Source: Psammoneis japonica (lineage: Eukaryota). From it: a stretch of 64,000 nucleotides of DNA. Location of the stretch: NCBI GenBank assembly GCA_008632985.1, contig QPGO01000006.1, forward strand, positions 1 through 64,000. Reading direction: 5' to 3'. The notes under the pieces were generated by a model, which saw only the letters and a list, made by a program, of their open reading frames with translations, was not told the origin of the DNA and made no database searches. Positions within the stretch are counted from its first letter, which is position 1, and the number at the start of each line of letters is the position of its first letter. A program made the position numbers and the translations under genes. Positions 3,000 through 64,000 of this stretch are shown piece after piece.

Positions 3000-5900
3000 G
3001 TTTGTATCAGAAGCGTTGGAGCAACATGGTTCTCTTTCCCTCTAAAAGACCCAACACGTACCGGTGCTCCAAAAGAGATTCAAGATGAAGTCCCCAAAGG
3101 TACAATCCGAAGAGACATGTTTAGCTTCTTTCAAGTGCAGCAAGCTGACTTCGAATACCACCGCTGGCGAGTTTGTCTTCCAACTCTATACGCCGTGGTG
3201 GCATATGCTGGATTGCAAGATCTGCGCAAGCCAGAAACATGTTTCTTCCAGAGTTCATCATTATTGTGTTCGTCGCGACACAAACAAATCCTCTTCAATT
3301 AAACCCACGACTGGTCGATTTTGTTGTTGTGTTTTCAAAGTCACGCCCTCCCCAAAGCGCGAATCTAGAACGTTGTTTTATCAGAACGGATGCATGCTCG
3401 TTTCGTCTTTCGAAAATCGGTAAATGTACCAAACGATGCTTCACGACATGTCGTCGTCGTCGTCGTGAGTAGTTCCAAGAAATAACAGCTTTTTCCAATT
3501 CGCATCACTTGAAAATTGATGCAGTAGAAATGGCAACGCGACCTTGTGCAAATCACCCCACTGTTCACTGCGTTGCGGATGACACGGATGAAACCATCAT
3601 CTGAACGGCATGCTTTGTCTATATTTGGAAGAAGATTCTTCTTTTTTCGCTGCAGCCTTGCGTCGTTTTGGAGGCATTGGTGCAAACGATGCTGAAAGAG
3701 CGACGGCAGATTATCATGGGCGAGTGCAAGAACAAGAGAGAAAACTATTACAGACATGCACATGTGATGATCCTGGGTCAGACCAAAACGACACAATCAT
3801 CAGGCGATCTTTGCGGCAGTACCACGAGAAAAGATCCAGCATGCGCACGCTGACGGGCTGTTCGCGCTGTGACCAAAAGCGGGGGAAATATCAAATAGAT
3901 TCATACAATCGTGAAGAATACAAGGGATGTAGAGTTATGATCCCGTACAATGAAAATGTGGCAAATGGCATTGCGAACGGAACACAAGCAACTGTGGCAA
4001 AAGTCGTGCTGAAACCAGGAGAACATTCATCGCAAGTGGTCTTGGACTGTGGAACATCCATTCGAGGTGTCACAGCATCCCAGGTGGATCATGTAGAACT
4101 CAAGCATAGCAACAAAAGCATCGATCCACCCACCTTTTGCTCAAGCCTGAGTCTTCCACTTTCAAAGCCTGTTCAAAGGACCCAACCCAACAGATGACAG
4201 CTGAGGAAAAAGAGAAACACATGCTCGGACTGAAAGTAACCCAATTGCCATTCATGACAAACAATGCGACTACAGGACACAAGCTTCAAGGAAGCGGTGT
4301 CGACAATGTGTTTGTGCGCAGCTGGAGCCACACACAAAACTGGGCATGTGTCATGCTCTCCAGGGTTGAGACCAGAAATGGTGTGTATCTTCGGCAACCG
4401 CTGAAGAGAGATTTAAGTCTGTGCAGACTGCCGGACGGGTGCAATGCCCTGCTCCGGTTGATGGAAGGAAAAAGTGTCATGTGCTTCACCAACGAACAGT
4501 GTGGCGACATTTTGCAGTCCAATTGACACATGGAACATTTTGACACTGCATGTGGGAATTATTTCTACATTTTGGAAAACATTCCAAGCTTTGTGCGCGG
4601 GCTTGCAGGCGTGCCCGGCAACAACCGATAGAAAACAAAGGGTCCAATCTAATGAATCGATGTCAGCACATCATTGCAATGACAGACACACTCAGCAACC
4701 AGTGATGCACAACGTCAGGACAGTTCTCTTGTCATCTGCCATAGAACGATCACACCAGAATTGTCAAAAAGGGGAAACCCACGTCTCTTCTTACAACACA
4801 TCCATGCACGAATGCAAGAATTAAATCGCCATTTTTTGATGTGATGTTAAAACACAAACACAGAATTGCATCGCACATCAATTGGTTGCGAACCCATCAT
4901 TTGAGCGTGAGAATTTTTTAAAAAATGATTGGTGGCAAGTAAAGATCAAAGCTCTAGAATTTGATGCTCGCGTGCATGGCAATCCAAACCAGCCCGGGTT
5001 CCACACCTCCTCACTTCGTGTCCAGAGTTCCCACCACAAAGGAGGAACCAATTTGAATGAGTAAAATGGGCAATGGGTCTCCCTGCACAAACCATGGCAC
5101 ACATTTGTACGTGAAACCTGCCAATCACACAACGTGACCTCGCAAAACCATCTGCAGATCCCACGACACGATCGTTCCCATGGACCCACGCTTTCTCGTG
5201 CAAGGGCACACAGTTGATTCAATCGACGTGTTGCATTGACTCAATTGCCTTGAAATCGTGGATCTGTCTGACTCTGCCATGTCCAACATCTTTCTTGCAC
5301 TCATCATTGTGCACTTCATTCTCTCGCTTCCAGCTCCACTTCATTCTCTGGCTTCCAGTTCTTGTCGGGGGCATCGAGATCGACGTTCGCTTCTTCCGTC
5401 GCTGTGTTTTTGGCCTCTTTCCTTGGGTGTTTCCAAAGAGCTGGACGACAACGGCAAGTCAACGACCGGCTTGTGCACCCAAGTTTCATGCCTTGACAAT
5501 CACATCTGACTGTGTTCTTGCGTTGTTGCCGCCTTGATGTGGGAGCCGGCATTTGCTGACGACCGCGATTGTGGAGAAGAGGACATCAAGCACTTCTGGT
5601 GCACCGTGCATCTCTTGGTTCGGATGTTTGCTGTCGACGCGTTCCAGACGCAGGTGGGAATCCGTGTGACATTGGGCCCGCAGACTTCTGCGTGCGAGCT
5701 CCGCAGTAAAATCATGCGGCAATTAAAGTGTCAATGATCGCCAACAGAAAATGAGGCAATTTTGCGAGTGCACAAACTTGCACATGATTGAAGCACATCA
5801 TTTTTTACTTGGCCAGTTGCATTCTTCAGACATTGAAGAATGCAACTGGCGCATTGTTGTTTCTATAAATTTGTGGTGTAAAACGTCTGGGGCTTCACAA

Positions 5901-8900
5901 AACAGCGAGTCTGGACAATTTTTTTTAAATGTCACACGTAGAAATCTACGTACGAAACATGCGACGGATGACAAAAATTGTTGTTGTCACACGTCAGCAC
6001 TACGAGCTCCCGCCCAGGGCTGGAACGCGTCTGTCTTTTGTTGCAGTCGTGCAATTGGTGTCAATGCAAAGCGGGTGTGGCGCATTTTTTGTAGCCCGAC
6101 GTTCCACAGTCAAGATGGTGGGTGAAACAACTCCAATCGCAGCAGCGCTCATCAAATTTGTTTGCAAGAAGGCACTCCGCGCAGCCAAAGGGCACACTTC
6201 CAGCATTGGATCCAAGGAAGACCCTTTGATTTTGCTGGCGAGTGTTGACATTGGAGAAGTCGTTTGTGCCGCTGACAAGAAGATCGCTGGCATTGAGATC
6301 CATCTGCTCATCGCGTCGGCACACGGACTTGACTCAACACAATGCATTGGACTTGCATCTCTGGTTTTCTGGTGCTTTGCTCCGTGGACATTCAAGTGTT
6401 GCAATGAAGGCTGTTTCAGGAAGGGACTGGAGTCGACCATTGAGTTGCTCAATGCCAAGCACAAATGAGGACAAACTGCAATTCTCAAACCGGGTTCGGG
6501 ACACATCGAAATGCAAGCAAAAATTCTCAAGGTGCATTTCAATGACAAGTCAGTTCCCTGTTGCACCATCCTCTTGCCCAACAAAAAGGAAATTCTGCAA
6601 ACGGATGAGTCGCAGTCAATGAAAGAGCTGCCTCCAACTCGTTGCAAGTATTTTGAAGACGATTTTGACGACGACGAGGACTAATTTGAATGAAGCAGGG
6701 AAATGATGTCTGTGTGGCACGTTTTGTTGAGCTCAAAAAGGTTCTGGCCGAAATGAACGCTGTGGTCCATGCATGCGTGGTGGCCTCACCAATGTGGGAA
6801 CCTGTCGGTGAGACAACACAAAAAAGCAATCCTGTGCACGACATTTGAGTTCTGCTTTTGGGGAAATTTAGCTGCGTCGGAATGGAAAGAACTTGTCAAA
6901 ATGACACTGCGAACAATGCCCACTCTCTCCACATGTTGCTTGTTTGGCACTGATTGTCTTTTGAGTTCTGCAGCATTTGTTTTTGATGCAATGTGTTCCA
7001 CATTTACGGCAGCTCTGTTGGGCCGGAGCGATGCTGAGCTTCCGACCATGCAACTGCTCGCACTCACTCTCTGCCAGACACAGATGCAACCATTGATGTT
7101 TCTTTTGGTTGTGGCATGCTGCGTGCTTTTGACGACGACAAAACTTGATGGATTTGTTGTCACATTTCCAATGGGTCGTCATCATCGTGCAAATCACAAT
7201 GCTCCGCCATGTGATCAATGGAAAAAGACATGTCTTCTTCGTCTTCCCATGATGATTCTTCTTCTTCTGCTTGCAGTTGTTGTCTCGCAAGAGCCGTCAT
7301 GCGATGCGACGACGATTGTCGATGAGAAGACTGTTTCATGCCACCAATGGACGACATGGAGGTAGACATGACTTCGCTCGCAGCCATGCTGGGAGTCATG
7401 TCACTTGCCAAACTGTGCGCATCCACTTGAAGGATTCATCATTGATTGTGTGCTTGCTGGAAACAACCGATGCTGCCATTGTCGCACCTGCAGCGCCATC
7501 TTTGCCACACTGGGGCCTGTCGTCCATGGCGCAGCAGTTGTCGTCATCTTGCTTTGATGTTTTTGTTTGGTCTTTTTGTTTCTCATTGCTCGTTTTGCTG
7601 GTCCGCGTCTGGTCTTGGGTCGTTTCTGCACTTTCCACCAAACTGCCAATGCAAGTGCCACGGCTGCCACGCAGACACCACAACTCCCGCATTGTTGCTG
7701 CTGCATTTCTTGGAAGACTTCAATGACTTGCACATTTGAGGCTTCTTGCAAAAACTCGTTGCATCGCCCAAGGCTTGCCGTTGCACCACATGCACAAATT
7801 CTGTTTCAACGGGACTGCCTTGAAAAAAACTTGGCCCATGCACTTCAAAGTCGTGGCAGTTGTCAACAAGACTCGATTTGATTTTTGCAAGCCCAAATCA
7901 ATGCGGGCTGTCCGTGGCAAACTTTGAACAAAGGATCTCATCAAGCATTGTGAACGGGAATCAAACGGCCCTCATTGATTCAGGCATTCCTGTCAATCTC
8001 GTGACACGCTCCGACGAACAATTGGAACGACTTTGCACCCAGGAAACACTTGAACTTCGCCCACAACATCTTCCGTGCACGGAGGACTTGCAGTCGCTAG
8101 TCCAGCCTCCACAAGCACGTCCAACTGATGGCATCCGTGTTGTCTGGGCCCAAGTAGAGTGCAGGAGGATGCCGGCACAGCCGTGCAGGTTTGCCAACTG
8201 CTTTGAGCAGCAACCGTTGGGTGCCTCGATGCATCATTGGATGCGCGTCCTGACTTAGATTCAAAACTGAATGCCGAGTCCAAGAAGACAGTCACACCAT
8301 CATAAAAAAATCAGTGAGACGCTAACTGCAGTTCGTGAGCGAGCAACATCTTGGACAGAGAGAGTGAGTGCGAAAGCACACTTGAAAAAGCCAACGCTTC
8401 CCAAGTCCCAACAGCAGCGTGCCTGGACCCCAGGGATCTTTTGCATCTTCGCCACTCGCAGCATCACTTTTAAAAAAAGAATTTCCTGTGTCACTGCAAA
8501 ATCAGTGTCTGTTGTCAAGGGTCGAAGACAAAGGGCATTGCATTCTCTCTCAGTTGATGAAAATTGAGTTGGGGGGACGTCTGCAATGCAATGCACTGCC
8601 CATCTTGCGTTGGGGGTGCCAATTTTCTGTGACACCTCACTCTTCAGCCGAACTTGACGCCGATGATGGCAACAAAAGGGTTCCGGGGCTTCCACTCCGC
8701 TTCATCACAAACATGCGGAACAAAACATTTTGCACGAAAAAGACACAGTCAAGTCGAGATTTCACAGAGCAAACAGCAGAGGCGTCGCTTCATCTCCTTC
8801 TCCCTCACAGGACCGGCAAACAGACAATCACGAATCTTTGCCCCCTCTGCATCCTTGCTGTTGACGTTGATTCAACCAAAACCAAAATCGCTGGTCACCC

Positions 8901-10720
8901 GCAGGATTCAAAAAGGCCTCAATGCACAACAATGGAGACAAAACATGCCGTCAAGGGTGGCGACCACTTGAGACGCAATGAGACGACTCCAGAGAGCATG
9001 ACAATTCTTGAGGAGAGACGACGCGACTCAAACTGACGGAGTCGACCCCACAGTTCCTGCAGAGCTTCTCACTCGACGCCAGACTTTCCTTCTTAAGAGT
9101 GCAGCATCAATGACGATGCATCGCAGCTGCTGTTGACGCCAAGGGCAGAGTCACTTTGTTTGCTCTTGGTGTGAATCCTTGCCTTGGCGGCGACACGTTG
9201 TGCTTTAGCCTCAAATTCCCAAGTGAGCTTGGATGCTGGAATGGCCAACATGCCAATGGAAAGACCACCGTCATCAATGCAACAGACTTGGTGCACCACG
9301 GAAAGTCTCCTTCGGGACCGCCATGTCCGGCAAGCATGAGCATCGACGTGCACATGATTGCACCGATTGAGCCAAAGCCCTCTGCGTCTTGCATGTCTTT
9401 GACATGGCGCGGGTGACAGAAATGTCAGAGGAAGGCGCAAAGAGCACCAGGTGGACACACATGATGAGGGCCACCTGCAAGGGTGACCCTTGCAACACAA
9501 TCTGCCACCCTGGAAATGCATTGGGTTTGCTGAGTCCGCCACCCTGGGAAAAGGATTGAGTCAGTTGAGTGCGAGGCAATCTGAGGAAAAGAAGACAGGA
9601 CAAGGTTGGAAACTCCACCCGCAAGACCAGCTCTTGCGGGAAAAGAGAAAGGTGGCCAATGAATCAATGAAGAGCAACAGTCTCTTGATGGGTGCCATGT
9701 GGCTGCATTTCTTTGATTCCACAATGGCAACGAGGAGAGTGACACACCCAATTAGAAAGAGTGTGGATGATGCTCCTTCTTCGATGAGAAACGTGTCTTT
9801 CTTGTGCTTGGAGTGCGGATCCATCGACAATCCGAAATCAAAAGCGTTGGAGCAATGTGGCTCTCTTTCCCTCTGAAAAAGACTCAATTTTTGACTTGCA
9901 TGTGCACCATGTGCCTTAGCATTTCCTGCATGATGGCAGCAGCATGTGCCACTGCTGCCAATTTGGCTTGGTGGGTCCAAATTTACATGCCGTGGACCAC
10001 ATTGTCAGGCAATTGTGGCAAGAGGAATCCCTGTGAGAGCTTCACCGTCTCCACACAGAGGTGTGCAATAGGTTGAGAGTCGATTGCCGCAAAAATTGAG
10101 CTAAATTTCTTGTCTTCTGCTGTCCTTTTCTTGTGCGAAGGCTCGAACTTCGTTTGCTTCGGCTGTTTGACGTGAGGATCACCAGGACGCAAATAATCAG
10201 GTGCATCGTCAGACTCGGAATGTTCACTTTTCTTTGGATTCGTCGCTCTTCTCTGCTTCAAATGTCGGTCATTCCCTCGCAAATGAAGTTTCCACTGTTC
10301 CTTTCCGCAAACAGCACTGAGAAGACACATGATGCCAAGCGCGGTGCTCAGATGCTTCACATTTTTTCTCTCGATACGATTGATGTGGCTCTGATCTTGA
10401 AAACATGGCCATTGTTCGCGTTGCCGCAGTTTGTGAGTGTGATCATTGTGTGTCGCATTGCGACCCCGAGTCATGATTGCGGCGGGATTCAATTTCTCAC
10501 ATGCACCACAATGACGTGTGATCGTGTTGCACCCGAACGACCACAAAACGATGGAATAGATTCACCTAGACGGTTCCCCCGTTGTGGCGTGTTGGTACAA
10601 CCGTCCTTTGAATACAAGCAATCGCAGCTCCACATACACTGTTGCGGTTCGAGCCGCCAAACGCCAAACGCCACAACCATCATTGCGAGTCGTGCACGTG
10701 ACTGAAAGCGCGGCATTAAT
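3000..10720. mobile_element. Degenerate TE block including a Helitron-like PIF1 helicase remnant; TpA-depleted from about 4.2 kb
   Basis: PIF1 motifs at 3.9-4.5 kb. Shared segment 3011-3050 / 9842-9883. Broken Tyr-free, Cys/His-rich ORFs throughout. Most of 5-10.7 kb is not assignable to a family. Confidence 0.6.
3610..4526 (+). pseudogene. PIF1-family helicase C-terminal part (Helitron RepHel-like), frameshifted near 4140
   Basis: YKGCRVM..NENVANGIANGTQATV; QLPFMTNNATTGHKLQG; NWACVMLSRV, equivalent to PIF1 motif VI YVALSRV with Y->C. Confidence 0.8.
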
Positions 10721-11034
10721 TCATGTTGGCGTTTTCCCGCGCTTTTTTCCAATATTTACAACGTATTTACTCTTTAATACGTGATATTTGACTGTATAGT
10801 CTAAATAGAGCTTTCATTAATTTATAGCATCTGTAATGACATAGGTGATAATTATTATTCAAGATGCTTCAGTAATATAAACTTTCTTATTTCAAAAAAG
10901 TGGGACTTCAACAAAAAATCGAAATTTTTAGCCATCGAAATTTTTCCAACGAAGCGGTGATCGGAAAGAAAACAGCATAAATCCTTCCGTTGAAGTCATT
11001 ACGTCAATCCTCAATACCTCTTTTTTTATCGACG

Positions 11035-12312
11035 ATGAGCGAAGGCGGGTTTTTACCATGGAAGAGGCAGCACGAAAAGCAATTCGCTACAGCGGCTGAT
11101 TACCGTGGGTTGAAGAATCCTTTGCCGCATCCGCCGGCAGGGAAAAGATGGCATCAAGATGAAGAAACGCGAGAATGGAGTCTAAAGTCTGACAGCGAAC
11201 ACGAGCGCAAGGATGAAGAAGAGAAAGTGCTGCACTGCATACCAGATATTGTCAACGAAGATTCGAAAACAAATGAAGGTGCAGATGAATGCGGAGACGA
11301 ATGGAGCTTGCTTTCCGACAAAATTTCAACCGGGTCAATCGGAGGCACGGGTGTGTTTGTTAACCGAGCTGGTTCCATATGTTCCATCACGTCGTTTTCG
11401 TCCAATCACTCGTCATCCACCGTTTCTTGTTCTGTGGACTATGTTGAGCATGTGGTGCTCCCTTCTGATACGCTTCAAGGTATTTGTCTTGCCTATAAAG
11501 TGAGTGGTATCACTTGAATTCTTTCCGTTTCCCGATGACGACTAGTTCTAACATTCTCGATGCTCCTTTTGTAGGTAAACGCAACTCGCATCCGGCAAGC
11601 AAACCACTTTAGTGGCAATTCGTTGCTCTTGGCTCCAAAGACATTGATAATCCCCATTACGAAGAGAGCTCAGCGAAGTGGGAAGATGTTTATTCAGTCG
11701 AAGGATACGCACGAGTACAAAATGTCTGCCTTTCGCGCCGAATGCCCAGACTATAGCTTGTCGGAATCCAAAGCGTCAGTACTCCTATTCTATCGTTTGT
11801 AATCTTGACTCCATCATGATACTCAAGGCCAAATGGTCGTTTTGTTTGTAGCTATCTCGAATTGAGTGACTGGGATTTGCACGAAGCAATTCGGTCCGCA
11901 CGAGAGGACAGCGAATGGGAAAAGCAGGAGACCTTTGATAATGATCCGGCGGGTGCCACCGACATTAAAATCACCGTTAAATGCGATGAACGAGGCGCAA
12001 TGGGCTTCACGACAATTGGAGCCGGTATTCAGCCGAGGGCAGCGCCGAAACCACCATCCGCAGCCAACCAGGTAATTTATGAAGGCGTTCCGGCCATTGC
12101 AACCAAAACAGTCACTCCCCAAGACGTTTACAATGTAAGTGACTCGTTCTCTATTGCTTGGATGACACTATAGCTAGTTAGACCAATTTGCTTCTTTCTT
12201 GTGTGTTTGTTTGCAACATTGTGCTGTTTAGGCCGCACCTCAGCATGATAACTTTGGTGTTGAATTGCAGCCACTAGTAAAGTCTTCTTCGGCTGGCGAT
12301 GAGGAAAGTTAA
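11035..12312 (+). CDS. LysM-domain protein with UBA-like segment, 4 exons (11035-11499, 11575-11774, 11852-12134, 12232-12312)
   Basis: Splicing gives HVVLPSDTLQGICLAYK|VNATRIRQANHFSGNSLLLAPKTLIIP (LysM) and ESKA|YLELSDWDLHEAI. Three GT-AG introns keep the frame to TAA at 12310-12312. Confidence 0.85.
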
Positions 12313-15559: not shown

Positions 15560-15800
15560 ATCCCTCTCTCTACTCTACAGAGCAGGCTCTAGCTAGAGCT
15601 AGCTAGAGAGTCCTCTACTCGTAGAGAGCTCCCTACTCGAGTCTATCTCTCTAGTAGCTAGCTACTAGCTGGCTCTAGCTAGCTATTAGATAGCTCTACT
15701 CTACTCTCTACTAGCTAGTCTTTAGCTAGAGTAGAGCTTGCTAGTAGTAGCTACTAGCTAGCTCTCTCTCTCTCTAGCTAGAGAGTATGTACTGGTAGCA
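15560..15800. repeat. CTAG/TAG/AGAG-rich low-complexity tract
   Basis: Built from tagc, ctag, ctac and gaga words. Confidence 0.85.
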
Positions 15801-17345: not shown

Positions 17346-17379
17346 CGGTAGAAGTGTCATGAAAGCGGAGGGGAGATCA

Positions 17380-22639: not shown

Positions 22640-22980
22640 AAGCGCCCAAACATGTTCATTGAAAACATTCAGAATTTGTGCTTCATGACTCAACTTGCGC
22701 TGAAGAACACTTTTGGGTGTTTTGCAAAAGTGGGTCAATGCAAACATGAGCTGCTCAAGAAAAAGTGAGCTCTCATCTTGCGGCGCCATTTGATGAAAAC
22801 AGACCCAATGAATGTTCAGAAATGCAGATGAGGGTGCATGCACAAGACATCTCAACATTTGAGGGTCTCTGCTTTTTTGCTGTTGAAAATTGTGCCACAG
22901 GTTCGGGCCACACACTTTGCTCAAAAATGGGCATTTTTGTGTGTGTGTGTGTGCAAACCTGAGTCTGGACCAAGTTGGAC
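22640..22980 (-). repeat. Dispersed repeat, homologous in inverted orientation to about 35100-35470
   Basis: Shared blocks aaaaatgccc.ttttt, gcacaattttcaacag.caaaa and tgagagct..tttt..tgagca. Confidence 0.6.
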
Positions 22981-25442: not shown

Positions 25443-25444
25443 GC

Positions 25445-51641: not shown

Positions 51642-54600
51642 GCCCTTGAAAACACGTATTGTTTCGGACCTCAGGTTTGCCTACGGCACTGGCCATGATC
51701 TCCAGTGTGGCAAGCTCAGTACTTCGTCAAAAGCAGAAACGATGGCAGCCAGTACTGGTTGCACAAACGACACCGTAACAATGCAAAGGCCGACCAGAAC
51801 CAAAAAGCTAGCGCAGCGTGTCTGAAAGATACGTGCGATGAGTGTCTTACTTGGGCCTACAAAGAACGTGAACTAACAGCAGAAGAGAAGAAACAAATCA
51901 GCAAGCAATCGAACGCACGAACAGCAATCACACCTGCAAGGACTAGGAACCTACGATACCTTTGTAAATGCCCTGGATTGCTGGAAGGCGCTGGGCAGAT
52001 CAGTGCTGCCTCTCTTACCAAGCCGAAAAAATACTCCTTTCATTGCCGCTGGCTGGAATCGTCTCAAGAACGGATCAACGTCCTGACTCGAATGATGAAT
52101 AATTTTCGGTTTGCTGTCCGGGTTGGCAGTAAGACACCCCAAGCTGCGGTTGTGCAGAGGCTACTATACCTTGCCCAGCTGCAAGTGCTGCACATGTGTA
52201 CATTATTCACTCCTACCGACATTGAGTAGTGCGGAAGCGTGGGCAATTTCCGAAACCGGACAAACCAACAGATCCGCTCCGTTAGAAGCTGTTCTCTGCG
52301 GCTCCGACGGGAATACTTCATCCCGAAGCTACGGCGGAGGTACTTGTTGATAAAGATGGCGAATAATCCATAAATTTTGAGGCCATTGTTTGGAACAACA
52401 CAGGGCACTCTCTCTCCACATTGTGGTGCACTCTCTGACCCAGACCTCGCCGCACACATCTCATGCAGCATGAGGAGTCACTGTCGTGAAAGTCGCCAAA
52501 GCAAATGCAACCCAACTGTCAAACGACGTTTACATCGACTGTAAGAGCATTCCCAATTACACTCATGCGATGCTGCATGATAAGGTGAACAACGTATGAT
52601 AAGTACCAAAAGGTGAGAGAGGCATCAGAGCAACAGAGACAACAAAATTCTGAAACATCGTAAGAATATTGCAAAAGACTAGTGACAACGCGTTGATCAG
52701 TCTTCCACAGATTGTGGACGAACCAGAGCACCAACTGACACAGCTGTAACAAATGCAGACAATGTGAATAAGAGAGACAATATATTAGTGACTTACCCTG
52801 TGCAAAGGCCTCGCGACAACGCTCCAAGAAGTGTTTCGCAACATCTTGTGTTTGTTGCTGCTTGCTGCATCAAGATTGTGCTGGTGTGTTGTTTTTTCTC
52901 GCGGATGTGAAACAGTCGCGCACTTTCACTCTGCGCGTCGTCGCGCGTCAAAGCAACAATGCATCGATCGTCGCTTTCACACACCTTTTTTGTGGTCACA
53001 GTCACACACTTTTCTTTTTGCAAGGATCGCAAAAACAGATGAATTCTAGCTGGAGAGATGCCACCTGGTGCACTGCTGCTGCTGCTGCTGCTTTTTCCTT
53101 TCTCTGAGTTGTTTTCAATCAAACAAGAGCCAAACACGTGCCTTGAGCTGCGACCCCCCCTTTGTTTGGGCAAAACTGCCAAGCCATGGAAAATGCAGCT
53201 GTCCAAGATTGTGGTGTCCAGCACATTGGTTGGTGCGAGGCCAGCAACACCACCATGATTTTTTGCTCCTCCAGCTCCGGGCCAGCTCCAGGTGGCACCT
53301 CGTGCTGTGTGCTGCGCGGCTGCAACAGCCATGAGAGCATTTTTTTCAGCGCGCCACAGGATGGAAAAAAAGAGCAACAAGGTGATTTTAACATCTTGCA
53401 CAAACCCGGCAAATGACAACACATCATTGGAGCTCTCATGGCTTGAGGCTGCTTTGCAGTCAATGGTCCAATGCAGTCAGCCTCAACACACAAAGCTCCC
53501 ACCACAAATTGTGCTCAATGAGGAGCGTCGTTTTGTGCATCGCCTGGGGCTGGAGCGCATCTCCAGCAAGCTCACAACAAACAAGAACAGGCTGCTCTGT
53601 TCATTCTGCAAGCTTGTCTCCCAACATTGTGCCATTTGCCACAAAAGAGCTCTCAAGCACACATGTCTTGCTCATGTTTGCAAACAGCTGGTGCACAAAG
53701 AAATGTGATGCAAGTGTTCTTGCCAGCACTCTCTTTTTCATTCTTGTCATTGCTCCCACCCAGACTGGCATCTTGTTTGTCAAAACATTTGACAGCAGCA
53801 CCCGTGCACTTTCCTGTCATGGAATTGAGGGAGAAAATCATCTGGCCCAACATGCTTTGTCAACAACATGCACAAATCTTTGGGAAAGCTCCCTCCTTTT
53901 GTGCCACTGCTTGTTTCGCTCACTTCAAAAGGGGATGGGTTCCAGCCACATGTGAACAAAAACATGCACAAAAATGGCACTTGCCCAATTTTTGCATGGT
54001 CTCCAACTTGCAAATGAGAGCTTTCACTTCCAAAAGTGTGGATTTGTCTAAATTTCAATGTTGGCAATGTCATTGTTTTGGTGCAATCAATGTTCTTTGT
54101 TGTGCTGGCAAATGAGCTGCAACACAAAAGGTGATTTTTGCCAAAATTTTTGAAGATTCACACACCATTGTTGCTGTTTGAAGGTTGACTCAAAATGTTT
54201 CTGCGTGCATTTCACAGGAGTGATCTGCTTGAACAAAATTCTCTGCAGCATGAGTGCCGATGCACAGTTAGAATTGTTTTCACTGAAAACTTTTGTGACA
54301 CATGTTCCTCCATGAAGACTTGAGCACCAATGAAAAAGTTGCTTGAATGTGTGTGCTCGAATCAAGTGCCAAAGCCAGAGCGCACAATCATTCTCAACAA
54401 ACAGCCTCAGTGCACAAAGCTTGCACAAATTGTGCTCAAAAGGGAGCATCATTTTTGTGTGTCACCTGGGGCTGGAGCATGTCCCAGGCTTTGGCACTTT
54501 GACATCATCTCCACAAATTGCGGGTGGTCCAACTCTCCTCTTGCTGTGCAGCGAGCAGAAATGCCTGGCTGCCTGGAGAAGATGTTGTCAAGAATCAAAA

Positions 54601-55984
54601 CAGCAGCAATGTTGGTGGTGTTTTGGATTGGCGGCAGTGATGATTGACTTGATTGGCTGGAAACTGGTTGCACAAGATTGTTGCCTGGGGTCGTGGTGGT
54701 GGTGCAAAGATTGTTCAAGAGGACAGAGATGAGATTCCATGAGAAGTTGCTTGTGCCCTTGCTGGCATTGACACTCCAGGCCAGCTGACCTTCTTGACTT
54801 CTCCATCTGACCCCATTCTCAACAACCGAGCACTGCACCATGTGGCGGATCAAATGAAAAAGAGCACGCCCTCTTTTGTGAAAACGCAGCAAATTTGTGT
54901 GTCAACCCAAGTGTTGCAGGATTTGTGTCAATCCAAGCATTTCAGCATTTTTCAATGGATGTTGCATTCATTGCCCAGTGCAAGGGGCAAAAGTGATTTT
55001 GCTTTTCTTGGCCACCATTCTCTTTTTCTTCCTTGCTGTGCTCTTTTGTCGTTGTTGATGCCAGATTGTTCTTGTGCAGATGAAGAATAAAAGTGAATGA
55101 AAGCAAAGTTACAGACCACCTGTCCATCTCCAATCTCCTCCCACCAACTCAACCAGAAGTGACCAACAAGTTGAGTTCGAGTGAGTCACTTGCTTTGGTT
55201 GCTGGAATGTGTCATGGTCCCATTCCACAGTTTCTCCTCAAAAAGATTTTTGACATTTGCGGTGCCACAGTTCTTTTTCAGGAAAGCATCGAAATCAATG
55301 GATTCTGCACCCTTTGAATGTCCTTCCATTGCAAGAACAAAGCATTGAGACACCAGACTCTCCAGCAAAATGTTCCTTTGCCAACCGCGCATGATCTCCT
55401 CTCTCCAGCTTTGAAGCATTCTCTGTGACAAATCCAGTTACCCTGTTCCAAGCGACAGTTCGCAGGTGAGACACCACTTCTTCCATTGCTTCAATTTGCT
55501 GAGACACCACGGGGAAGTCCACATTCTTTTCATCGTCCAGCTTCTCGTTCAGGCAGGCCATGTGCAGTTGTTTGAGGACCGGCTAAATGCGCAGTGCACA
55601 TTTTTGAGTTTTTGGGTCTCATTTTGCGCTGAATGCGCAAAAATGCGCTGCTGTGTAGAAACATGCCAGGATTCTACGTGGCGTCACACCTGAACGTTGC
55701 AACACACTCGTGATGAGCTTGCAACTGCAACAGAAGTGATTGGCCCTCTCTAGAGACAAGAAGTGACAGTCACATCACAAAACTCACTGTCACATGCATT
55801 TGCAGCTGTCACCCACTCAAGCAAGTGACAGTGCTTGCTGTTCAGTCGTTCAAACATGCAGATCTCAAGAATGTCGCGTGGGATCTCAGTCACGGTTGTG
55901 AAGCTCGCGGCAGTGCGCAGACAGTGCGCACAGGGTTGGAGGGAGGCTGTGACGTCATCTGTCAGTGCTGCATCTACGCAGAGT

Positions 55985-58210
55985 GCACCACCCCTGTGGC
56001 AGGGGGAGCTGTGTGTGTGTGTGTGGTTGTGCGCGCACGGCTTCGCCGTGTGTTGAGTTTTAATGTCAATGTCCACATGCATGTGCACATTCCACAAGCA
56101 AAAATTCCTGTTCCACAGCTCCCCCAAAACTCCAACCACCAAAAACCGAGGGGTTGGAAGTGCACTTTCGGGAGCTCTTTTTCTCCGCACAAAAAACACG
56201 CATTTCGTCGACTCGACCATGATGATGCCTCATGGTTCTTCCCCATCGCCTTCCCAGGATGCCGATCCTGCTGACACCGTTGCCAACAACACTGGCACAA
56301 CAGGCAATGTCATCATTCCGGTTCTCGTGGGTGTGACACGTGCAAAATGAGATGCCACAAACTCACACTGTTGTTTGCATGCTCCACCGCCTCCCACAGA
56401 CACTGTCACGAATTCCAACACCGCACCTGCGTTTCGCCCCCCTGGCATGCCCGATGCTGTTGCTCCTGCCCTTGCTGCCACAGGTGCTGTTGATGCTGTC
56501 ATTGCATTTTGCCAATGACGTCCACAATGAAATGCCAATGACTCACACTTCTTTCATTCTCGCCCCACCGCCTCCCACAGATGCTGTCACGAATTCCAAT
56601 GCCGCACCTGCGTTTCGGCCCCCTGGCATGCCCGACACTGTTGCTCCTGCTCTCACTGCCGCAGGTGCTGTTGATGCTGTTGTTGTCTTTTGCCAATGAT
56701 GTCCACAACGAAGTGCTTGTAGCTCACACTTCTTTCATTCTCACCCCACCGCCTCCCACAGATGCCATCACGAATTCCAATGCCGCACCTGCGTTTCGGC
56801 CCCCTGGCATGCCTGACACTGTCAATCCCACCCTTGCTGCTGCAGTTGCTGTTGACACTGTTGTTGTTTTTGCTTTGGAAGGAACACAATGGATGACGGA
56901 TGACGGCGGACCAGGAAACCCATGCAACCACGGCCTGCTGATGGACGACACATCAATGGACATGAATGGCGCCTCTTGGTTGGCTCTCGAGTGCAGTCTA
57001 ATCTTTAGAATGTACAGACACATCACGCAGCTCTCTGCAAATTAGAAACCTGACAACAATTGGATGGCAGGCATGCTTTCACAGTTTTTTAGTTTCAAGT
57101 TGGAGAGGTCAGCGAATTGGCATTTGTTTGCAGGCGACTTGGCAAGGTTTCAAATGGTGCATGTGACTTGGACACTGCTCCATTTTCCAGGACCAGGTCA
57201 TCATGTGCAACTCCACAAGAGGCCACTCTCGCCGTTTGAATTCTACATGTGATGCACAACATGCTGTTTTTGCATGTTGCTAAAATGGAGGCAGGCAGCA
57301 ACGTGCTTTTGGCAAATGCTCACTGTGTTTGTCGCTGTTAGACCTTCACAACCAGTGCCTTGTTGACAGCCATGCTGCCACTTTGCATGCCGGCACCTTC
57401 TCTGCCCATGTTCCATCAGCTGCGTCCTCCTTCACATGTTGCTGCGGTTCATCTTGACACTTGTTGTTGGCTCCGATTGGCTCCGCTGGGCTCTGGGTGA
57501 GTCTCAATCACCTCCAGACAGACAAGGTTCTGCTTGGGAACAATCATCCTGAGAAAGGTTGTCACCATGCCTCCTGTCATAGATGCTCCTCTGCCATGCC
57601 CACTGAACCTTGACGTCGGTTTGTTGCTTTTGTTTTTTGACCTGGTTTCAGAGCTGCACCCCAGACCGTTTGAGAGAAGGCTCATCAGCACCTTCCACAA
57701 CACGGCGATGCGAACGAGAATCCAGTTTCTCCGGGGACGCAATGACAGGAGCAGACCAATCACGGTGCTGTGTTTGTGTTTCAGGCACAGGATCCGGCGA
57801 ACAGAAGACCAAATCCTCCGGATGGCAAATCGGCTGTGTTTGGGTGACGACAGCGGGTGCAACAGCACCGGCCATTGCAGGAGGGACTGCCGCATCAGAT
57901 GTGGCAGGCGGGGATGCGTCAGGTGGTGTGGGGGACGAAGAACGGGAGGTCGTCATGGTCGAGTCAACGAAACGCGTGTTTTTTGTGCGGAGAAAAAGAG
58001 CTCCCAAAAGTGCGCTTCCGACCCCTCGGTTTTTGGTGGTTGGAGTTTTAGGGGAGAATGTGGTTCAGGATTTTTCCTGCTGCCATCAGCATTTGTGCAC
58101 AAATGCACAAACAAATGTGAGGACATTTGCACAAAAATGTGATGAACAAGACACAAACTGCCACGCAACCATGACATCACCATGTTCTCCCCTGCCACAG
58201 GGGTGAGAAT
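55985..58210. repeat. Inverted repeat pair (about 55985-56230 and 57950-58210)
   Basis: cccc[ct]aaaactccaaccaccaaaaaccgagggg...ggagctctttttctccgcacaaaaaacacg...gactcgaccatga and cacccctgtggcagggg present in opposite orientations. Confidence 0.88.
56340..56875 (+). repeat. Tandem repeat, 3 x 181 bp
   Basis: ccaccgcctcccacaga starts at 56384, 56565 and 56746; copies differ mainly by CA<->TG. Confidence 0.9.
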
Positions 58211-59269
58211 GCACGCAGCCAGTTTCAGCGCACAAATGGAGTGGCGTGCTTTCAAAAATTCGGCGCGCATGCCTGATCTGCACAAAATGCACGCACGTAA
58301 AAATGCACTACAAAATTCGTAGAGATGTTCATTTGAATTCACTTCACACACAAACATCACGGCAACGACACCGCGACATCGGCGGTGGACGCACACAACA
58401 ACGACAGCAGACTGGGGGGTTGTGATGCACTGAGACAACAACTGACATGATGAGAAATGAGGTGTCAATGTCAAATGACAATGATCGAGTTGTTTTGGGA
58501 GCTGGTTGAGCCATTGGTGACGAAGGGTTTTTGGCACGTGCAACTTGGCACTGAAATCACGCAGAGGTTTTGGCCACGGTGGGGCTGTTGTTTTTCACTT
58601 TTTTTGGGGTGCATTTTGTGTTTTCTCGGTCGATCGCATTGATGAAGCACTGAAGTGAGCACGCGACAACAGATTTTGACGAAAAGTTGGATTTTCATTC
58701 ATCACAGAGGATTGGCGCAGGGTTTTTAACACGGTGAAGCACGGGGGGACGATTTTTTCACCAGATTTGCAAGATCCTGCATCCCACCCAATTCGCGCGT
58801 AATGTCAGTGGATTGATGTATTTTTTACACGCAAGAAGCGCAACAACGTCGACACACCCGACATGACAGACTTCCCTGCTGTTGTCGTAATGAGTGAAAT
58901 CTTGTTGTGTTCGGTGCGTAGAGTCTAGTGCCATTTGTCCGCATGTAGACGAGTGCTGCGCACCGCACTTTTGGAAAGTGCGCCACTCCATGAGCGCAAA
59001 ACCGGGTTTCGACGAGCGCATTTAGCCGGTTGCAGTTTCATCGTGGGACCCCACAAATGCGGAGGGACCCGCAACCCGGAAATGTGTAGAGTTCTACGTG
59101 AATGCACGGGGACTGTTCACGCAGGTTTTGTGCCAGAGCTGTCTCGCGAACTGGGCGTTTTTTCGGATTTTTGTCGTAGAAACTGCACCAGTTTTGCGTG
59201 TGTAGGCTACATGTTTCAGCACCACATACAAAAATTCGCGTAGAGCTCTACAGGAGGGTCCCCTCCGTA

Positions 59270-60219
59270 TTTGTGGGGTCTCACGATGAAGTTGTTTCGT
59301 TGAGCATTCAATCACGCTGCTTCGAATGCTGTGGAGTGAGCGACACCAATCCGTCTTGAGCTTGACTCGTCGTCCTCCAGCCAATCGAAGGACATGGCCC
59401 TCGATGTTTTCTTGGGCGCGGATGCTCTGTTCATCCAATGAAGCTGCATCCAATCAAGGAACCCAAGCCTCCGCAATGCGAGGATGTTTGTCTACGTCGA
59501 GCTCGTAAAGGTCCAGACACTTGCCACCTTGATTGCTGCGTGTGCTCAACACCACTAGCGCTGGTTTGTTGCAGGCAAGCACCACTTGGTTTGGGGGTGA
59601 GACCCACTCGAGATTGACGGCACAACCATCCAGAGTGAGTTGCAAGAGTTCGTTGTAGAGCTCCGGTTGTTGCTTTAGCCACTCGTTGGCGTCTTTGGCT
59701 TGGTTGGGACCCGACAAGCCCAGACTTTGACGTGATTTTAGCCGAAGTTGCTGATCACCACGAATGGTGGCACGCAGGTAGGAAGACATGAGAGACCCAC
59801 CCGCTTTCTCTTCTATCCAGATGACCTTCGACAGGTTGAGGTTGGCCGTCATGGGATTCTCGGCCTCGGCATTCGAGAGCACCAGGACGTTGGAACTCGG
59901 TGCAGTGGGGAGCATGGCGGCAGCTAAATGTGCGGTGCGTTGTGTCCTGAAGTCGGCTGTCTTGGAAGTAGAAAGGATTCACACCTTGCTGCTTCGACGT
60001 ACATAGTTCCATGAGATTATGATAGAGACGCGTCCATTCAGAAACATCTCCAGCATCACAATGTGAAGCGCTAGTAGCATCTATGGGGAACACCGCCGTG
60101 GAAGTTCGTTGCGCAGAACGAGCAGCGACAGTTCGCTGCGAACGACGAGCAGAGAATGCCCTCGTCAAGAATGAAGTAGTCAAAGGCAGCAACACCGCAA
60201 AGAGACATAAAGGTGCCAT
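59270..60219 (-). pseudogene. rnl1: T4 RNA ligase 1 (Rnl1)-family gene with signal/transit-peptide-like N-terminus, inactivated
   Basis: LYHNLMELC, PGALECRG, ENPMT, EKAGGSLMSSYL (motif I KxDGS), NLEWVSPPNQVVLAC and ENIEGHV...KLKTDWCRSLHS are collinear with T4 Rnl1 as recalled. Deletion/frameshift near 59865, TGA at 59454-59456, truncated near 59270. Confidence 0.88.
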
Positions 60220-60879
60220 CGTAATCTACTCTGGAACAGCGTCGCTCTTAAAGTGTATGTTGTTGTTATGCTTGGGATCTCGTATCTAAGGGAAATCAAA
60301 ACGTGTCGAGAAGTGACCGTTTCCAGGGAAGGGAAACACGACGACTCTGGAGCGAGGCAAGCCGCAATGGGATGCTTGTAGCGGCCGCATCCTTCCTTTT
60401 TCACGTCTGTCAAATAAAGTAATCATTGGAATAATATCAAAGCCTCACAGTAGGCACGTCGAGACATGTATCGTACCGGTAGTCTGCAGAAGCAAGGTAG
60501 TTGGGTAGGACGTCTGCGGTTTGGGAGATAGCGATAGATGTTAGCAATTTTTTTCTTTTCTCAGCCATCATCGGCTTGACTTTCTTATTGTTAACATCGT
60601 ACACGGAAGGCATTATTGAGACGTTTATCGTGAAAGTAGTCACCGAAATTTTCCTGCTGGATTTCATCATCATAGAGCAACTACAACATAATGTTTCGGG
60701 CCTTTCCATCGAGACGGAGGTACATTCCTCTTTAGCTATATATCATCGTGACCATAACCCTACTATAGGATGATTCCGTTTCCATTCATTGCGTAACTTT
60801 CTTCTTACCCGAAGGCATCCATAGGAAGTAAGCAAGTGGATGAAGCCCTCCTGATTCGGTATATAATTTGGGCTCCATT

Positions 60880-62229
60880 CTAGCTGATGTCCTTTTCGGG
60901 AAATGTAGACTCTGAAACAAGCAACGCAGAGGCCTCTGTTGAGTGCAGTTCTTCCCTAGGAAGATCAACAACATTAACTACTGCAATGCCATTGTGTCCC
61001 GACAAAACTCTTCTGGCCGGTGCTTCGAACCATTGCGAAACGGCCAGCGACGCCATAATTGTGGCAATCCACTGAAAGGGTGCGTGCCACCAAGGAAGAC
61101 GGAATGTGAGACTGTAGTCTGACAATACGATATGCCAGTCTCCCATGAGAAATATCTTGACCGCCGCAGTATAATAGGCTAGTACCACAATGTGGAGACA
61201 ATACAAAACCAAGGAGAGCTGACCAAGCACCAGCAACGCCCGAGTAGACAAGATTTGTCGCGTCCAGCAAGTCCGGGCCGTGCCGTTGTCTGAAGAATCA
61301 TCGGCAAGCACCATGGAAGCTAGCCAAAGCGCATGTGCAGGAAACAAAATGGCTTCCAAAGCAATGGAGACATTGGTTCTTACCGATGAACCACAATAGT
61401 GTTGCACAATGGGTGCTTGGACGGCCGTCATGAGTAGCACCACAGATAGGGCATCCGTAAGAATGGCCCATTGCGAAGCCGATCCAATAGATGCTGTCGT
61501 TTCCCGCCGTTTCCGCTCAACCCATTCTCCCAAAAAGACACCGGCGAATATGTGAGGCAACCGACTCAAGCAGTGTACATGCCACACGAGCCAACCCATT
61601 TCGCGTTCAGCTTTAGGTATGGTAAACACGAGCGTCCAGAGTCCACCACTAAACAACCAAAAAGTAGCCATCCCGATCATCAGGGATCCATCGGTCCACT
61701 GTCGAATACGTTGCGACAGGACCGGAAAGCATGCATACCCGTAAAGGAATACAGCCACTTGCCACAGGACTCCACCCACATCAATAAGCGAAATAAACCA
61801 TCCTTGCAGGAAAAGAGCACACCCAGTAAAGGACCGCCATGCCGCAGCCTTGTCGGGTTGCTTGCATAGGACGAGGAGAATGGACAAATTCAATACCAGA
61901 GTCAAAAAGTATGTCGGAAAGAGCCGAGCGCAGCGTTTTCTCCAAAACAACCTGACGTTTGCCCAGGAATCCAATTTACTCGCATACAAGCGAGCCAAGG
62001 GAAGACCTGACAATATAAAGAACAGGGAAACCGCCTGGAGGTACTCGAATCCAACATTAACATCAAGAAACAAATCAGTTTGATGGCCGAGGAAAATTGC
62101 CATGGCGCAAACACCACGAAGGCCATTCAGTGGAACCATGTCGCGTAGCTGCGCGTTTCTGTCATGGGTTCCATGGTCATTCTGAGTGTTTTCAATGCGT
62201 TGCGAGAAAGCTTTCTTTGTCTCTGTCAT
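60880..62229 (-). CDS. Acyltransferase-3 (OafA/YrhL-like) membrane O-acyltransferase
   Basis: LNGLRGVCAMAIFLGH, AVSLFFILSG, FWRKRCARLFPTY, LGQLSLVLYCLH and WFEAP; many TM helices. Confidence 0.88.
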   Translation of the reverse strand: MTETKKAFSQRIENTQNDHGTHDRNAQLRDMVPLNGLRGVCAMAIFLGHQTDLFLDVNVGFEYLQAVSLFFILSGLPLARLYASKLDSWANVRLFWRKRCARLFPTYFLTLVLNLSILLVLCKQPDKAAAWRSFTGCALFLQGWFISLIDVGGVLWQVAVFLYGYACFPVLSQRIRQWTDGSLMIGMATFWLFSGGLWTLVFTIPKAEREMGWLVWHVHCLSRLPHIFAGVFLGEWVERKRRETTASIGSASQWAILTDALSVVLLMTAVQAPIVQHYCGSSVRTNVSIALEAILFPAHALWLASMVLADDSSDNGTARTCWTRQILSTRALLVLGQLSLVLYCLHIVVLAYYTAAVKIFLMGDWHIVLSDYSLTFRLPWWHAPFQWIATIMASLAVSQWFEAPARRVLSGHNGIAVVNVVDLPREELHSTEASALLVSESTFPEKDIS

Positions 62230-62439
62230 ATGATAATGCTAAAGCTATGCACAAAGGAAATACACAACAGACCACAAACACGCCATTGTCAGCCAACGAG
62301 CAACGAGGCAGCAACAGGCCGCAGAACGACACTGAGATTTAGTCGTGAATGACGTCATTCTCATTCGTTTGTTGAAAGTTCCAATCGGATTTGCCACTCT
62401 TGGGATTCTACTGGGTAGTTTCCCTAACCACTAAACAGC

Positions 62440-64000
62440 CGCTTACACTTCACGCTTCACTTTGCCACCGACAGCGCACTGTCTCCCGACCTTTGCCACG
62501 TCTGAAATTCTCCCTTGCATTTGCCACTGGTGTCAATGTCGCCACAATTTTGCAGGCACCTGCTGCGATGAGATCGTGGATGTGTCAAAAATTGCGCGCA
62601 CCACACCACCGTCGTTTGACAGACACAACAATGGCACACCTGCCTGACAGAGCTTGGAAGCTGGAAGTGAAGGAGACAGTGGTTTTTGTCTGTGTTTTCA
62701 AGAGGGGATGCACCCAACTGGTTGGACTGTGAAATGTTGAAAAGGTGCATCAGCTGCAACCGTGGCATGAATTGCCAGAGCATGATCTCTGTTTTTTGAT
62801 GCTCTTGGGGGCACATCTCACAGAGACATGGCCCTCTCTTGAGGTGGAGGACACAGTGCAACAAATCAGGGTTGGCATCACCACCATGAGTCGGGCAAAC
62901 CAAAATGACATGTGCAGCAGGAAGACAGATTTCTGCTGGGTGAGTGAAGGATGGGCACACTCAATGTTTGAATTGAAGAGCAAGTGTGCATCATCATCAG
63001 TGCTCTGCTTCAAAAAATTTAAAACAATGACAATGCATGCCAGATTCATAAAATTTCTGAAGGGGTGATGCAGAAAACTGCTGCATCCAGCACAATGCTG
63101 TTGGGCACATCTGTGCATGATTGCACCTGGCACCACTGTGATCACAATGCACCGCATCAACAAAAAAGCCTCGCTTCTCCAGAAAAAACAGCAAAATGCA
63201 AACCCTTGGCCATGATGCAGCTGGGGTTGAACCAACGAGCAAACCAAACATTCCAAAGCCCCACAAGTGATGAGGTGAGCAACAGTGTTCACAACACTCG
63301 GGCACCTTGCTCTGAACTCACTGGCTTTGTGACAGGCAGTGAAATGAGCAAGCACCACACAGGGAGAGTGCCAGAGATGGGGATGGATCCACCGATGTCA
63401 ATGGCAGTGCAAGAAATGAGCGGGGGTTGGTTGCACAACAAATGGGACTCTGACCTCCTCAGCCATTGATGAAGAAGCAGACAGAACAAGTGACAAACAA
63501 AAGAAAGAATGATGAGTGACAGGGAACATCATGCTTTTCCATGTCAGCACAAGTTTCTCAGCCAACAACAAGGCCATGGCAGGCCGGTGCAGCTGACCCA
63601 GCAGATTTCAATGAACCGGGACCCAAGTGCCAGTGTGCAGGTTGAACCTTCATGGAAAATTCAGGTGTTGTCCACATGATTCCAGCAAGCCCCAGCCAAA
63701 TTGCCCCCACCTGTGATGCACAGGAGTGTGATGAGCACCTGCTTCTTGCTGTGTCTCCCAAAAAATTCCAGACACACAATTGAAATGACCATCCAGAAAA
63801 GGCTGGTGCCATCAAAGTGGGAGGTTGCAGCATTTTGATGCGTGAGAATTTTTTTGACACAAAAATGAGGGACATTTTGACCCAAATGGTTGTGTGAAGA
63901 CATTTGCGCTGTTGCAGATTTGAGTGAGGAGACCAGGACAAGTTTCTCACAGTTGGGTGTCTCTTGTTGTGTCTGTGTGTGGAGAAGTGCATTTGTGTTT
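62440..64000. mobile_element. Start of another degenerate TpA/CpG-depleted repeat block, running off the window
   Basis: Composition only; no family recognised. Confidence 0.5.

Follow-up and report, generated by a model that had tools for sequence, protein, structure and literature searches.

What removes almost every TA dinucleotide from some stretches of a diatom nuclear genome and leaves the genes alongside with theirs? The question is raised by the first 64,000 nucleotides (forward strand) of contig QPGO01000006.1 of the Psammoneis japonica assembly GCA_008632985.1, hereafter the window. A reading made from the letters alone (the sequence-only reading) had picked out five blocks poor in TA and rich in CA and TG, set among genes of normal TA, and had proposed a repeat-restricted hypermutation of TpA to TpG or CpA. 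The analysis described here supports, with a probability of roughly 0.8, a mutation process that works at the level of DNA and on both strands, converts TpA to TpG or CpA, and has hit discrete, putatively silenced stretches of this genome. Such a process is already known from the chlorarachniophyte Bigelowiella natans (Mettrop et al., bioRxiv 10.64898/2026.01.13.699255); within the literature searched, it is new for diatoms.

Five blocks of the window have lost nearly all of their TA

In sliding 1-kb windows over the 64 kb, the observed/expected ratio of TA is 0.00-0.19 within the blocks and about 0.45-0.9 outside, and that of CA+TG within them is 1.5-2.3. A two-state hidden Markov model run on TA positions placed all five blocks within 0.8 kb of the coordinates first proposed; they sum to 24,752 bp, with TA ratios of 0.02-0.10 across 39% of the window, and contain 83 TA against about 1,111 expected at the background of 44.9 per 1000 dinucleotides. 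Block 1 (4956-10556) keeps 34 TA in 5,601 bp (TA ratio 0.10, CpG 0.76, CA 1.53, TG 1.57), block 2 (19961-29634) 16 in 9,674 bp (TA 0.03, CpG 0.27), block 3 (34828-36743), with edges sharp to 100 bp or less, 3 in 1,916 bp (TA 0.02, CpG 0.27), block 4 (52795-58799) 28 in 6,005 bp (TA 0.07, CpG 0.55), and block 5 (62445-64000), which runs past the window end, 2 in 1,556 bp (TA 0.02, CpG 0.26); none is assigned a strand. CpG is thus depleted as well, its ratio outside the blocks being 0.91-1.03, a depletion that the sequence-only reading had passed over. The host genes beside the blocks do have normal TA, as had been claimed, at a ratio of 0.5-0.7; this is also the background value, so that TA is already under-represented outside the blocks.

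Nine block edges are visible, and at seven of them the change takes place over no more than 100 bp; at 29634, for example, TA counts per 100 bp run 0, 0, 0, 0, 0, 0 and then 6, 1, 10, 4. Partly TA-depleted zones adjoin block 1 on its left (about 3.0-4.95 kb) and block 4 on its right (58.8-60 kb). Each block has about as much TG as CA (548 and 536, for instance), and runs tests within the blocks detected no strand-coordinated clusters of TG versus CA (z from -1.9 to +1.0). Among the 149 stop-to-stop open reading frames (ORFs) of at least 90 amino acids which overlap the blocks, none matched a transposon or viral Pfam domain at E<=0.01; the sole real Pfam match was to a host acyltransferase.

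Copies inside and outside the blocks give the direction of change

Transition-tolerant local alignment, for which shuffled controls score 44-50, found two pairs of copies in the window, one member of each lying in a block; a self-comparison of the window on purine/pyrimidine letters only confirmed both. The counterparts outside the blocks fall in one stretch of normal TA in gene-like ORFs on the plus strand (43532-44811). In pair 1, positions 44547-44811 are matched by a decayed copy at the end of block 5 (63724-64000; score 288.5), and in pair 2, positions 43532-43848 are matched by a decayed copy in the left part of block 4 (52947-53282; score 190.5). The 14 TA of the normal copy in pair 1 became 5 TG, 5 CA, 2 TT, 1 AA and 1 CG, with none retained, and its 13 CG became 6 TG, 3 CA and 4 other dinucleotides, again with none retained; TG was kept at 14 of 16 sites and CA at 7 of 11. 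In pair 2, which is more diverged, 11 TA gave 4 TG, 1 CA and 6 other outcomes, none surviving, and 4 of 14 CG were retained. Taken together, TA was retained at 0 of 25 sites, with 15 having become TG or CA, and 17 of 27 CG had become TG or CA.

Per-site rates were derived from the two pairs with the strands symmetrised; the ceiling for A>G at TA is 50% in this count, as a single hit destroys the site. A>G stands at 20/52 in TA, compared with 19/101 in AA, 17/87 in CA and 11/76 in GA, and C>T stands at 17/54 in CG, compared with 13/89, 7/53 and 10/63 in the other contexts. In these two pairs, A>G at TA thus exceeds the 14-20% found in the other contexts. The paralogous letters quoted in that reading were also correct (gcaaCAtgg and ctcTAaaa against gcaaTGtgg and ctcTGaaa; ccccCAaaac against ccccTAaaac).

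Conserved tyrosines read as cysteine or histidine in two gene remnants

Direction had first been argued from proteins, in which residues expected to be tyrosine (Tyr, Y) read as cysteine (Cys, C; codons TGY) or histidine (His, H; CAY). This holds for two of the families named. The PIF1-type helicase is the C-terminal part of a RepHel protein of Helitron type, a remnant at 3592-4523 on the plus strand in which a frameshift separates ORFs 3592-4194 and 4110-4523, and it lies in a partly TA-depleted zone. A phmmer search with the remnant against 1.84 billion representatives returned 180 matches at E<=1e-3; the long ones, at about 1,900 residues, combine Helitron_like_N and PIF1 domains, and both ORFs align to their C-termini. 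Searches of Pfam (including looser ones and stop read-through) and PDB with the remnant ORFs returned nothing, and the identity comes from phmmer alone. Of seven columns with conserved Tyr, five fall within the remnant, whose letters there are Y, H, C, C, C, so that four of the five are replaced; among the 150 relatives listed, these columns are overwhelmingly Tyr (in one of them, Y 77, C 3, H 1).

The second case is a T4-Rnl1-family RNA ligase at 59097-59978 on the minus strand, in the partly depleted zone at 58.8-60 kb. Its ORF 59457-59978 matches T4 RNA ligase 1 (PDB 2c5u, E=1.2e-10; PHROG 562, E=3.4e-21), and the continuation at 59097-59453 matches the same 2c5u chain (E=5.8e-4). With its ligase motif KADGSL changed to KAGGSL and a stop in frame at 59454-59456, this is a pseudogene. 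When its Tyr columns were read from an alignment with four relatives, the four invariant columns gave Y, C, C, C (MSSY retained, LGY to LAC, GxY to GKC, WYL to WCR), and a column of Tyr or phenylalanine, which is Tyr in T4 Rnl1, gave His (EGY to EGH). The 3' part of this phage-type pseudogene, found here in a diatom nuclear window, lies inside a high-copy repeat, and this suggests a foreign or mobile origin.

Two further examples did not hold up: the copia motif (about 25.2-25.6 kb, minus strand) found no support in Pfam and PDB searches, stop read-through included, and the integrase change of GYP to SCP had no support from Pfam or PDB and its motif could not be located.

Since Cys and His replacements share one ORF, both DNA strands have been mutated, and the argument of the sequence-only reading against RNA editing stands. 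One form of such editing would be the A-to-I editing of double-stranded RNA by an ADAR-like activity, with the edited RNA then reverse-transcribed to give new copies. Repeats do often yield double-stranded RNA, and ADARs favour a 5' U, according to the Discussion of the B. natans preprint (bioRxiv 10.64898/2026.01.13.699255). TA to TG and TA to CA nevertheless occur inside single ORFs, and the sequences hit include a Helitron, tandem arrays and non-coding DNA. Helitrons are rolling-circle DNA transposons without an RNA intermediate, and ADARs are, to our knowledge, confined to animals. With resident DNA mutating in place in B. natans as well (bioRxiv 10.64898/2026.01.13.699255), we find this route very hard to credit.

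Lost TA reappears as TG and CA, beside a slower decay of CpG

Expressed per 1000 dinucleotides, the blocks differ from background by -41.5 for TA, -27.3 for CG and +71.5 for CA+TG, and when CA+TG was regressed on TA and CG across all 1-kb windows, the slopes were -1.16 and -0.74 and R2 was 0.90. The gain in CA+TG is therefore accounted for, as the losses of TA and CG sum to it. The change is indeed opposite in direction to fungal repeat-induced point mutation (RIP), as had been argued. RIP in ascomycetes is alike in being a dinucleotide-specific transition hypermutation which strikes repeated or mobile DNA on both strands and destroys coding capacity; it differs in changing C to T mainly at CpA and so creating TpA, whereas here TpA is destroyed by A:T to G:C change, and a perfect tandem duplication and a multi-copy stretch are left unmutated. 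RIP also raises TpA/ApT, lowers (CpA+TpG)/(ApC+GpT), depends on a sexual phase and is set off by duplication, all copies being hit; in the window, normal and mutated copies of one sequence, whose histories may differ, coexist.

Decay of 5-methylcytosine had likewise been set apart as an opposite process. It cannot remove TpA; decay of CpG to TpG or CpA is, however, active in the same blocks too, where it supplies roughly 40% of the CA/TG excess. Both are changes of a palindromic dinucleotide to TpG or CpA in silenced repeats, and CpG ratios in the blocks are 0.26-0.76. As sole cause, methyl-CpG decay fails, for the loss of TA exceeds that of CG and TA has been lost at 58.8-60 kb with CpG intact (TA ratio about 0.2-0.5, CpG about 1). 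The two losses also separate in the other direction: CpG loss without TA loss is common in the metagenome loci described below, such as L044 (CG 0.19, TA 0.72). Because block 1 combines a TA ratio of 0.10 with a CpG ratio of 0.76, and TA drops at 58.8-60 kb where CpG is near 1, the loss of TA is faster than the decay of CpG, which is an ordinary second and slower process alongside it.

In contrast to TA, AA/TT rises from 155.4 per 1000 in background to 175.3 in the blocks, and therefore loss of A is not general after any A or T. This disfavours error-prone repair synthesis of the DNA polymerase eta type, which had been put forward as an alternative: its WA motif (W being A or T) predicts loss of AA, and A>G at AA (19/101) is not above that at CA (17/87).

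Other copies and metagenome contigs carry the same signature

Contigs of runs X1, X2 and X3 were placed on positions 49300-64000 at a likeness of at least 80%, yielding 2,159, 60 and 0 contigs, respectively. X2 leaves most of blocks 4 and 5 uncovered, which is no evidence about their expression. Summed contig depth, which is not equal to copy number, is 1,200-11,226 across 55683-59610 and 57 over 60.1-63.5 kb, and the right part of block 4 (about 55.7-59.6 kb) is therefore a member of a high-copy repeat family. Among the 20 rows listed for 55738-59107, nine have TA in other copies where the window has TG or CA and five have CG where the window has CA or TG; two show the reverse for CG, four are of other kinds, and none has TA in the window against TG or CA elsewhere. 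In the normal-TA stretch at 49.3-51.4 kb (depth 245-507), four of the 20 listed rows have TA in the window and TG elsewhere, so the window copy there appears to be the unmutated one. Block 5 is single-copy at this likeness, and a 4,565-bp X1 contig which spans 59265-63829, including most of that block, differs from the window by 9 letters; the block bases are thus supported, in a run which is possibly from the assembly's own sample.

Metagenome contigs were scanned with a four-row RepHel alignment, and 53 loci were confirmed from 135 pattern matches. Three of these are TA-free in the matched region (L016, TA ratio 0.00; L027, 0.02; L036, 0.03), the remaining 50 having ratios of 0.30-0.84; L016 has no TA in its 984-bp match and 5 across its full 4,056 bp. 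None of the three has a Tyr at any of the seven conserved positions, where they read CCFCCCH, CX-CHCC and --CKCH-, compared with no Cys or His in 46 and a single one in 2 of the other 48 aligned loci. Their protein identity to the window remnant is 41-49%, and they are therefore separate instances. L027 has a sharp edge at about position 1700, where TA falls from 9-18 per 250 bp to 0-2; an integrase-like ORF at 3-842 of the same contig has normal TA, and therefore not all mobile elements there have been mutated. Tyr-free Helitron fragments also occur as predicted proteins in ENA metagenome assemblies (P0195, 0 Tyr in 219 residues; P0279, 0 Tyr in 243). As loss of TA removes the stops TAA and TAG, long false ORFs arise which gene callers report; P0176, P0230, P0250 and P0258 are further Tyr-free Helitron-fragment 'proteins'.

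These data bear on two explanations in which no directional mutation took place. The first is that a TA-poor composition is native to the sequences, through TA-avoiding sources or selection, in line with the low background TA (ratio 0.5-0.7) and with the continuous range of 0.30-0.84 among metagenome Helitron loci. It is largely refuted: five unrelated kinds of sequence reach the same extreme, the unmutated counterparts have TA exactly at the TG/CA sites of the block copies, Cys and His stand at conserved Tyr positions in pseudogenes which, with their stops and frameshifts, are beyond selection, and the TA-free class (at most 0.03) is set apart from the rest (at least 0.30).

The second is a sequencing or assembly artefact, for example long-read miscalling of modified bases in repeats. 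Modified bases do cause systematic miscalls on some platforms, the platforms of the assembly and of X1-X3 are not on record, and X1 is possibly the source sample. If a palindrome were miscalled strand by strand, CG would appear too, yet CG is depleted; copies differ in state, the blocks hold the stops, frameshifts and transversions of old pseudogenes, and the same signature recurs in three contigs of different metagenome records and in the Tyr-free Helitron fragments of ENA. The B. natans mutations, moreover, were called from Illumina data (bioRxiv 10.64898/2026.01.13.699255), and an artefact of this kind is highly improbable.

The 83 TA that survive in the blocks are biased in context, TTAA being 5.3-fold and CTAA/TTAG 3.1-fold over-represented and ATAT absent (0/83); the 18 TA that survive in the metagenome loci do not show this bias. 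Tentatively, it may come from a flanking-base preference or from fresh C>T change at CAA.

The mutated stretches are decayed, but not simply repeated, DNA

The sequences hit comprise the Helitron remnant, the high-copy repeat, tandem arrays, the phage-type Rnl1 pseudogene, and copies of gene-like host sequence in the left part of block 4 and in block 5. The decayed tandem arrays lie in block 2, at 23247-25214 (17/51-bp unit) and 26366-27147 (26-bp unit). The description of the process as repeat-restricted therefore stands in part: the blocks do consist of decayed repeated or mobile DNA, but block 5 is single-copy, and both the repeated stretch at 49.3-51.7 kb and a 434-bp duplication have normal TA. 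The trigger is thus not simply that a sequence is repeated, as that stretch and that duplication keep their TA.

Sharp edges, with TA-rich DNA just outside, resemble insertion boundaries, and copies of one family differ in the extent of mutation. Both features would suit elements that were edited before integration (as episomes, viruses or transposition intermediates) and arrived TA-free, in the manner of APOBEC acting on retroviral cDNA. Against this, the units of the 26-bp array are dimorphic for CA and TG at matching column pairs, which implies that mutation followed array formation; decayed copies of gene-like host sequence are mutated too, blocks 1 and 4 pass gradually into the partly depleted zones, and in B. 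natans it is resident, integrated single-copy DNA that mutates in the course of clonal growth (bioRxiv 10.64898/2026.01.13.699255). Editing before integration is for these reasons an improbable account, and we favour mutation of resident DNA.

Several observations sit uneasily with a TpA-specific process directed at silenced DNA. Its direction is derived from copies that are old and far apart (the two pairs diverge by 29-36%) and from no de novo mutation, and pair 2 is noisy, with TG or CA at just 5 of 11 TA. A>T, by which TA becomes TT or AA, is raised at TA (10/52, compared with 4/101, 5/87 and 0/76 in the AA, CA and GA contexts); a pure deaminase model does not predict this rise, which stands beside the AA/TT enrichment of the blocks. 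The multi-copy stretch at 49.3-51.7 kb keeps normal TA, as does a 434-bp tandem repeat (2.4 units at 100% identity, 47596-48637; TA ratio about 0.7), which either arose very recently or was duplicated in the assembly. The letters in which other copies differ come from 40 of 1,005 rows, and X1 as a possible sample of the assembly itself is not independent.

Relation to Bigelowiella natans and possible chemistry

Fifteen mutation-accumulation lines of B. natans yielded 302 nuclear point mutations; 231 of them fell in regions of giant-virus and virophage origin, and 230 of these 231 were A>G or T>C, all such transitions being at TpA (bioRxiv 10.64898/2026.01.13.699255). The rate there was about 6e-7 per site per generation, some 1000-fold above background, and affected some lines only; the genome also holds 124 TpA-depleted, CpA+TpG-enriched clusters, which are enriched for transposon-type domains (bioRxiv 10.64898/2026.01.13.699255). 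The process in P. japonica appears to be of the same kind, by analogy, in that TpA is the sole target, TpG and CpA are the products, the affected regions are local and delimited, and the footprint is depleted in TpA and enriched in CpA+TpG. The two cases differ in several respects. The host is a chlorarachniophyte (Rhizaria) in one and a diatom (Stramenopiles) in the other; the viral region of B. natans has a TA ratio of 0.45, and its 124 clusters lie in about 95 Mb, whereas the blocks described here are saturated; the targets there are giant-virus and virophage insertions, here a Helitron, tandem arrays, a high-copy repeat and decayed copies of gene fragments; and here CpG decay accompanies the loss of TpA, and the process is known from its sequence footprint. 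In the literature searched, no report of TpA hypermutation in diatoms was found and only the B. natans preprint describes the signature; the relevant terms are absent from a 2025 preprint on diatom transposable elements (10.1101/2025.10.24.684338), and a text match to 'TpA' in PMC4504042 proved to be the word 'Tpase'. The sequence-only reading knew of no such description in diatoms; a TpA process had, however, already been shown in B. natans.

A process specific to the palindrome TpA would, as we picture it, strike silenced repeated, mobile or foreign DNA on both strands and convert TA to TG or CA, by A:T to G:C transition, until almost no TA remained, with slower decay of CpG to TpG or CpA in the same stretches as expected from the cytosine methylation of diatom repeats. 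A role for this process in genome defence is what we infer. Mettrop et al. propose an ADAT2-like deaminase and a defence against invading DNA (bioRxiv 10.64898/2026.01.13.699255).

As to the chemistry, a candidate deaminase, TadA/ADAT2-like or other, may be recruited to silent chromatin and turn adenine into inosine, a proposal we hold with about even confidence. The known adenosine deaminases (TadA, ADAT2-ADAT3, TadA base editors and ADAR) share the conversion of A to I, read as G, and a preference for 5' U or T; the natural enzymes differ in acting on RNA. TadA and ADAT prefer a 5' U or T, and we know of no established natural DNA adenine deaminase targeted to chromatin. Whether A or T is attacked is indistinguishable by sequence alone, because TpA is its own reverse complement. 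The same TpA-specific DNA process could thus run on another chemistry, namely attack on thymine (for example to 5-hydroxymethyluracil pairing with G), a mutagenic symmetric modification of TpA, or error-prone repair synthesis. TA to TG on one strand is TA to CA on the other, in keeping with the near-equal TG and CA of each block, and the excess of A>T at TA may point to some lesion or repair step in addition to simple deamination. In dinoflagellates, TpA and TpC are reported to be the main sites of 5-hydroxymethyluracil. Counting against these other chemistries, beside the AA/TT counts given above for the polymerase eta form, is the natural T-A context of TadA and ADAT, which act on tRNA A34 after the invariant U33; overall we regard them as unlikely, though a serious competitor to deamination of adenine.

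Iyer et al. 2011 (PMC3239186) describe deaminase-SAM-Tudor proteins found only in stramenopiles, which offer one candidate enzyme, as a lead and not as a test. A broader and distinctly speculative proposal is that TpA editing is a conserved, enzyme-driven defence of SAR eukaryotes (Stramenopiles, Alveolata and Rhizaria) which works through a chromatin-recruited deaminase, or else that a symmetric TpA mark is a second, CpG-like epigenetic dinucleotide. Read as a SAR-wide defence, it may take in diatoms, chlorarachniophytes and the hosts of the TA-free metagenome contigs, and may act faster than methyl-CpG decay.

Implications

If the signature is confirmed genome-wide, a mutational defence known from one rhizarian alga would extend to diatoms, a major and genetically tractable group, and to environmental contigs. 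Confirmation would also provide a natural A:T to G:C mutator of DNA with a strict dinucleotide context, the enzyme could be traced by setting genomes that bear the signature against genomes that lack it and through knock-outs in diatoms that can be transformed, and models of mutation spectrum and GC content would need a second hypermutable dinucleotide besides CpG. It would further account for the failure of diatom repeat annotation on such blocks, as in the 149 ORFs without a transposon or viral domain, and would mark Tyr-free, Cys/His-rich, stop-poor ORFs such as P0195 and P0279 as pseudogene artefacts which gene callers may report.

Other features of the window

A probable nested non-autonomous element of about 2.2 kb (55980-58210, no strand assigned) lies in the right part of block 4 and is missing from some other copies of the repeat: X1 contigs include joints of 55979 to 58206 and of 55982 to 58212, and some copies also lack about 58233-58993, which points to both segments as putative nested elements. 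The 2.2-kb segment carries inverted arms (56101-56225 and 57950-58075) with 90% identity, which rises to 99% on purine/pyrimidine scoring, and Tandem Repeats Finder placed a tandem repeat (181-bp unit, 2.7 copies) at 56384-56873. A possible common segment of about 105 bp in blocks 3 and 2 (35128-35236 and, inverted, 22855-22958; 68 matches, 25 transitions, 11 transversions) did not, like other weaker matches of the purine/pyrimidine self-comparison, stand clearly above a reversed-sequence control.

TA-rich spikes stand just outside some block edges, with 17, 12, 10 and 9 TA per 100 bp at 10756-10855, 34628-34727, 29834-29933 and 36843-36942, respectively; they may mark sites favoured for insertion, or promoter or terminator DNA between genes. 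A TA-rich low-complexity stretch of normal DNA at 15655-15781 (1.9 copies of a 68-bp unit of the TAGCTAGA type) reaches a local TA ratio of 1.23. The repeated stretch at 49300-51750 has normal TA and contains an ABC-transporter-like ORF, its summed depth being 245-507 in X1 and 110-457 in X2 over a baseline of about 57. The host genes of the window, which show it to come from a diatom and not from B. natans, are ordinary and intron-poor; the closest named relatives of its aldehyde dehydrogenase, at 70-72% identity, are from the diatom Pseudictyota dubia and from an MMETSP record named 'Helicot...'.

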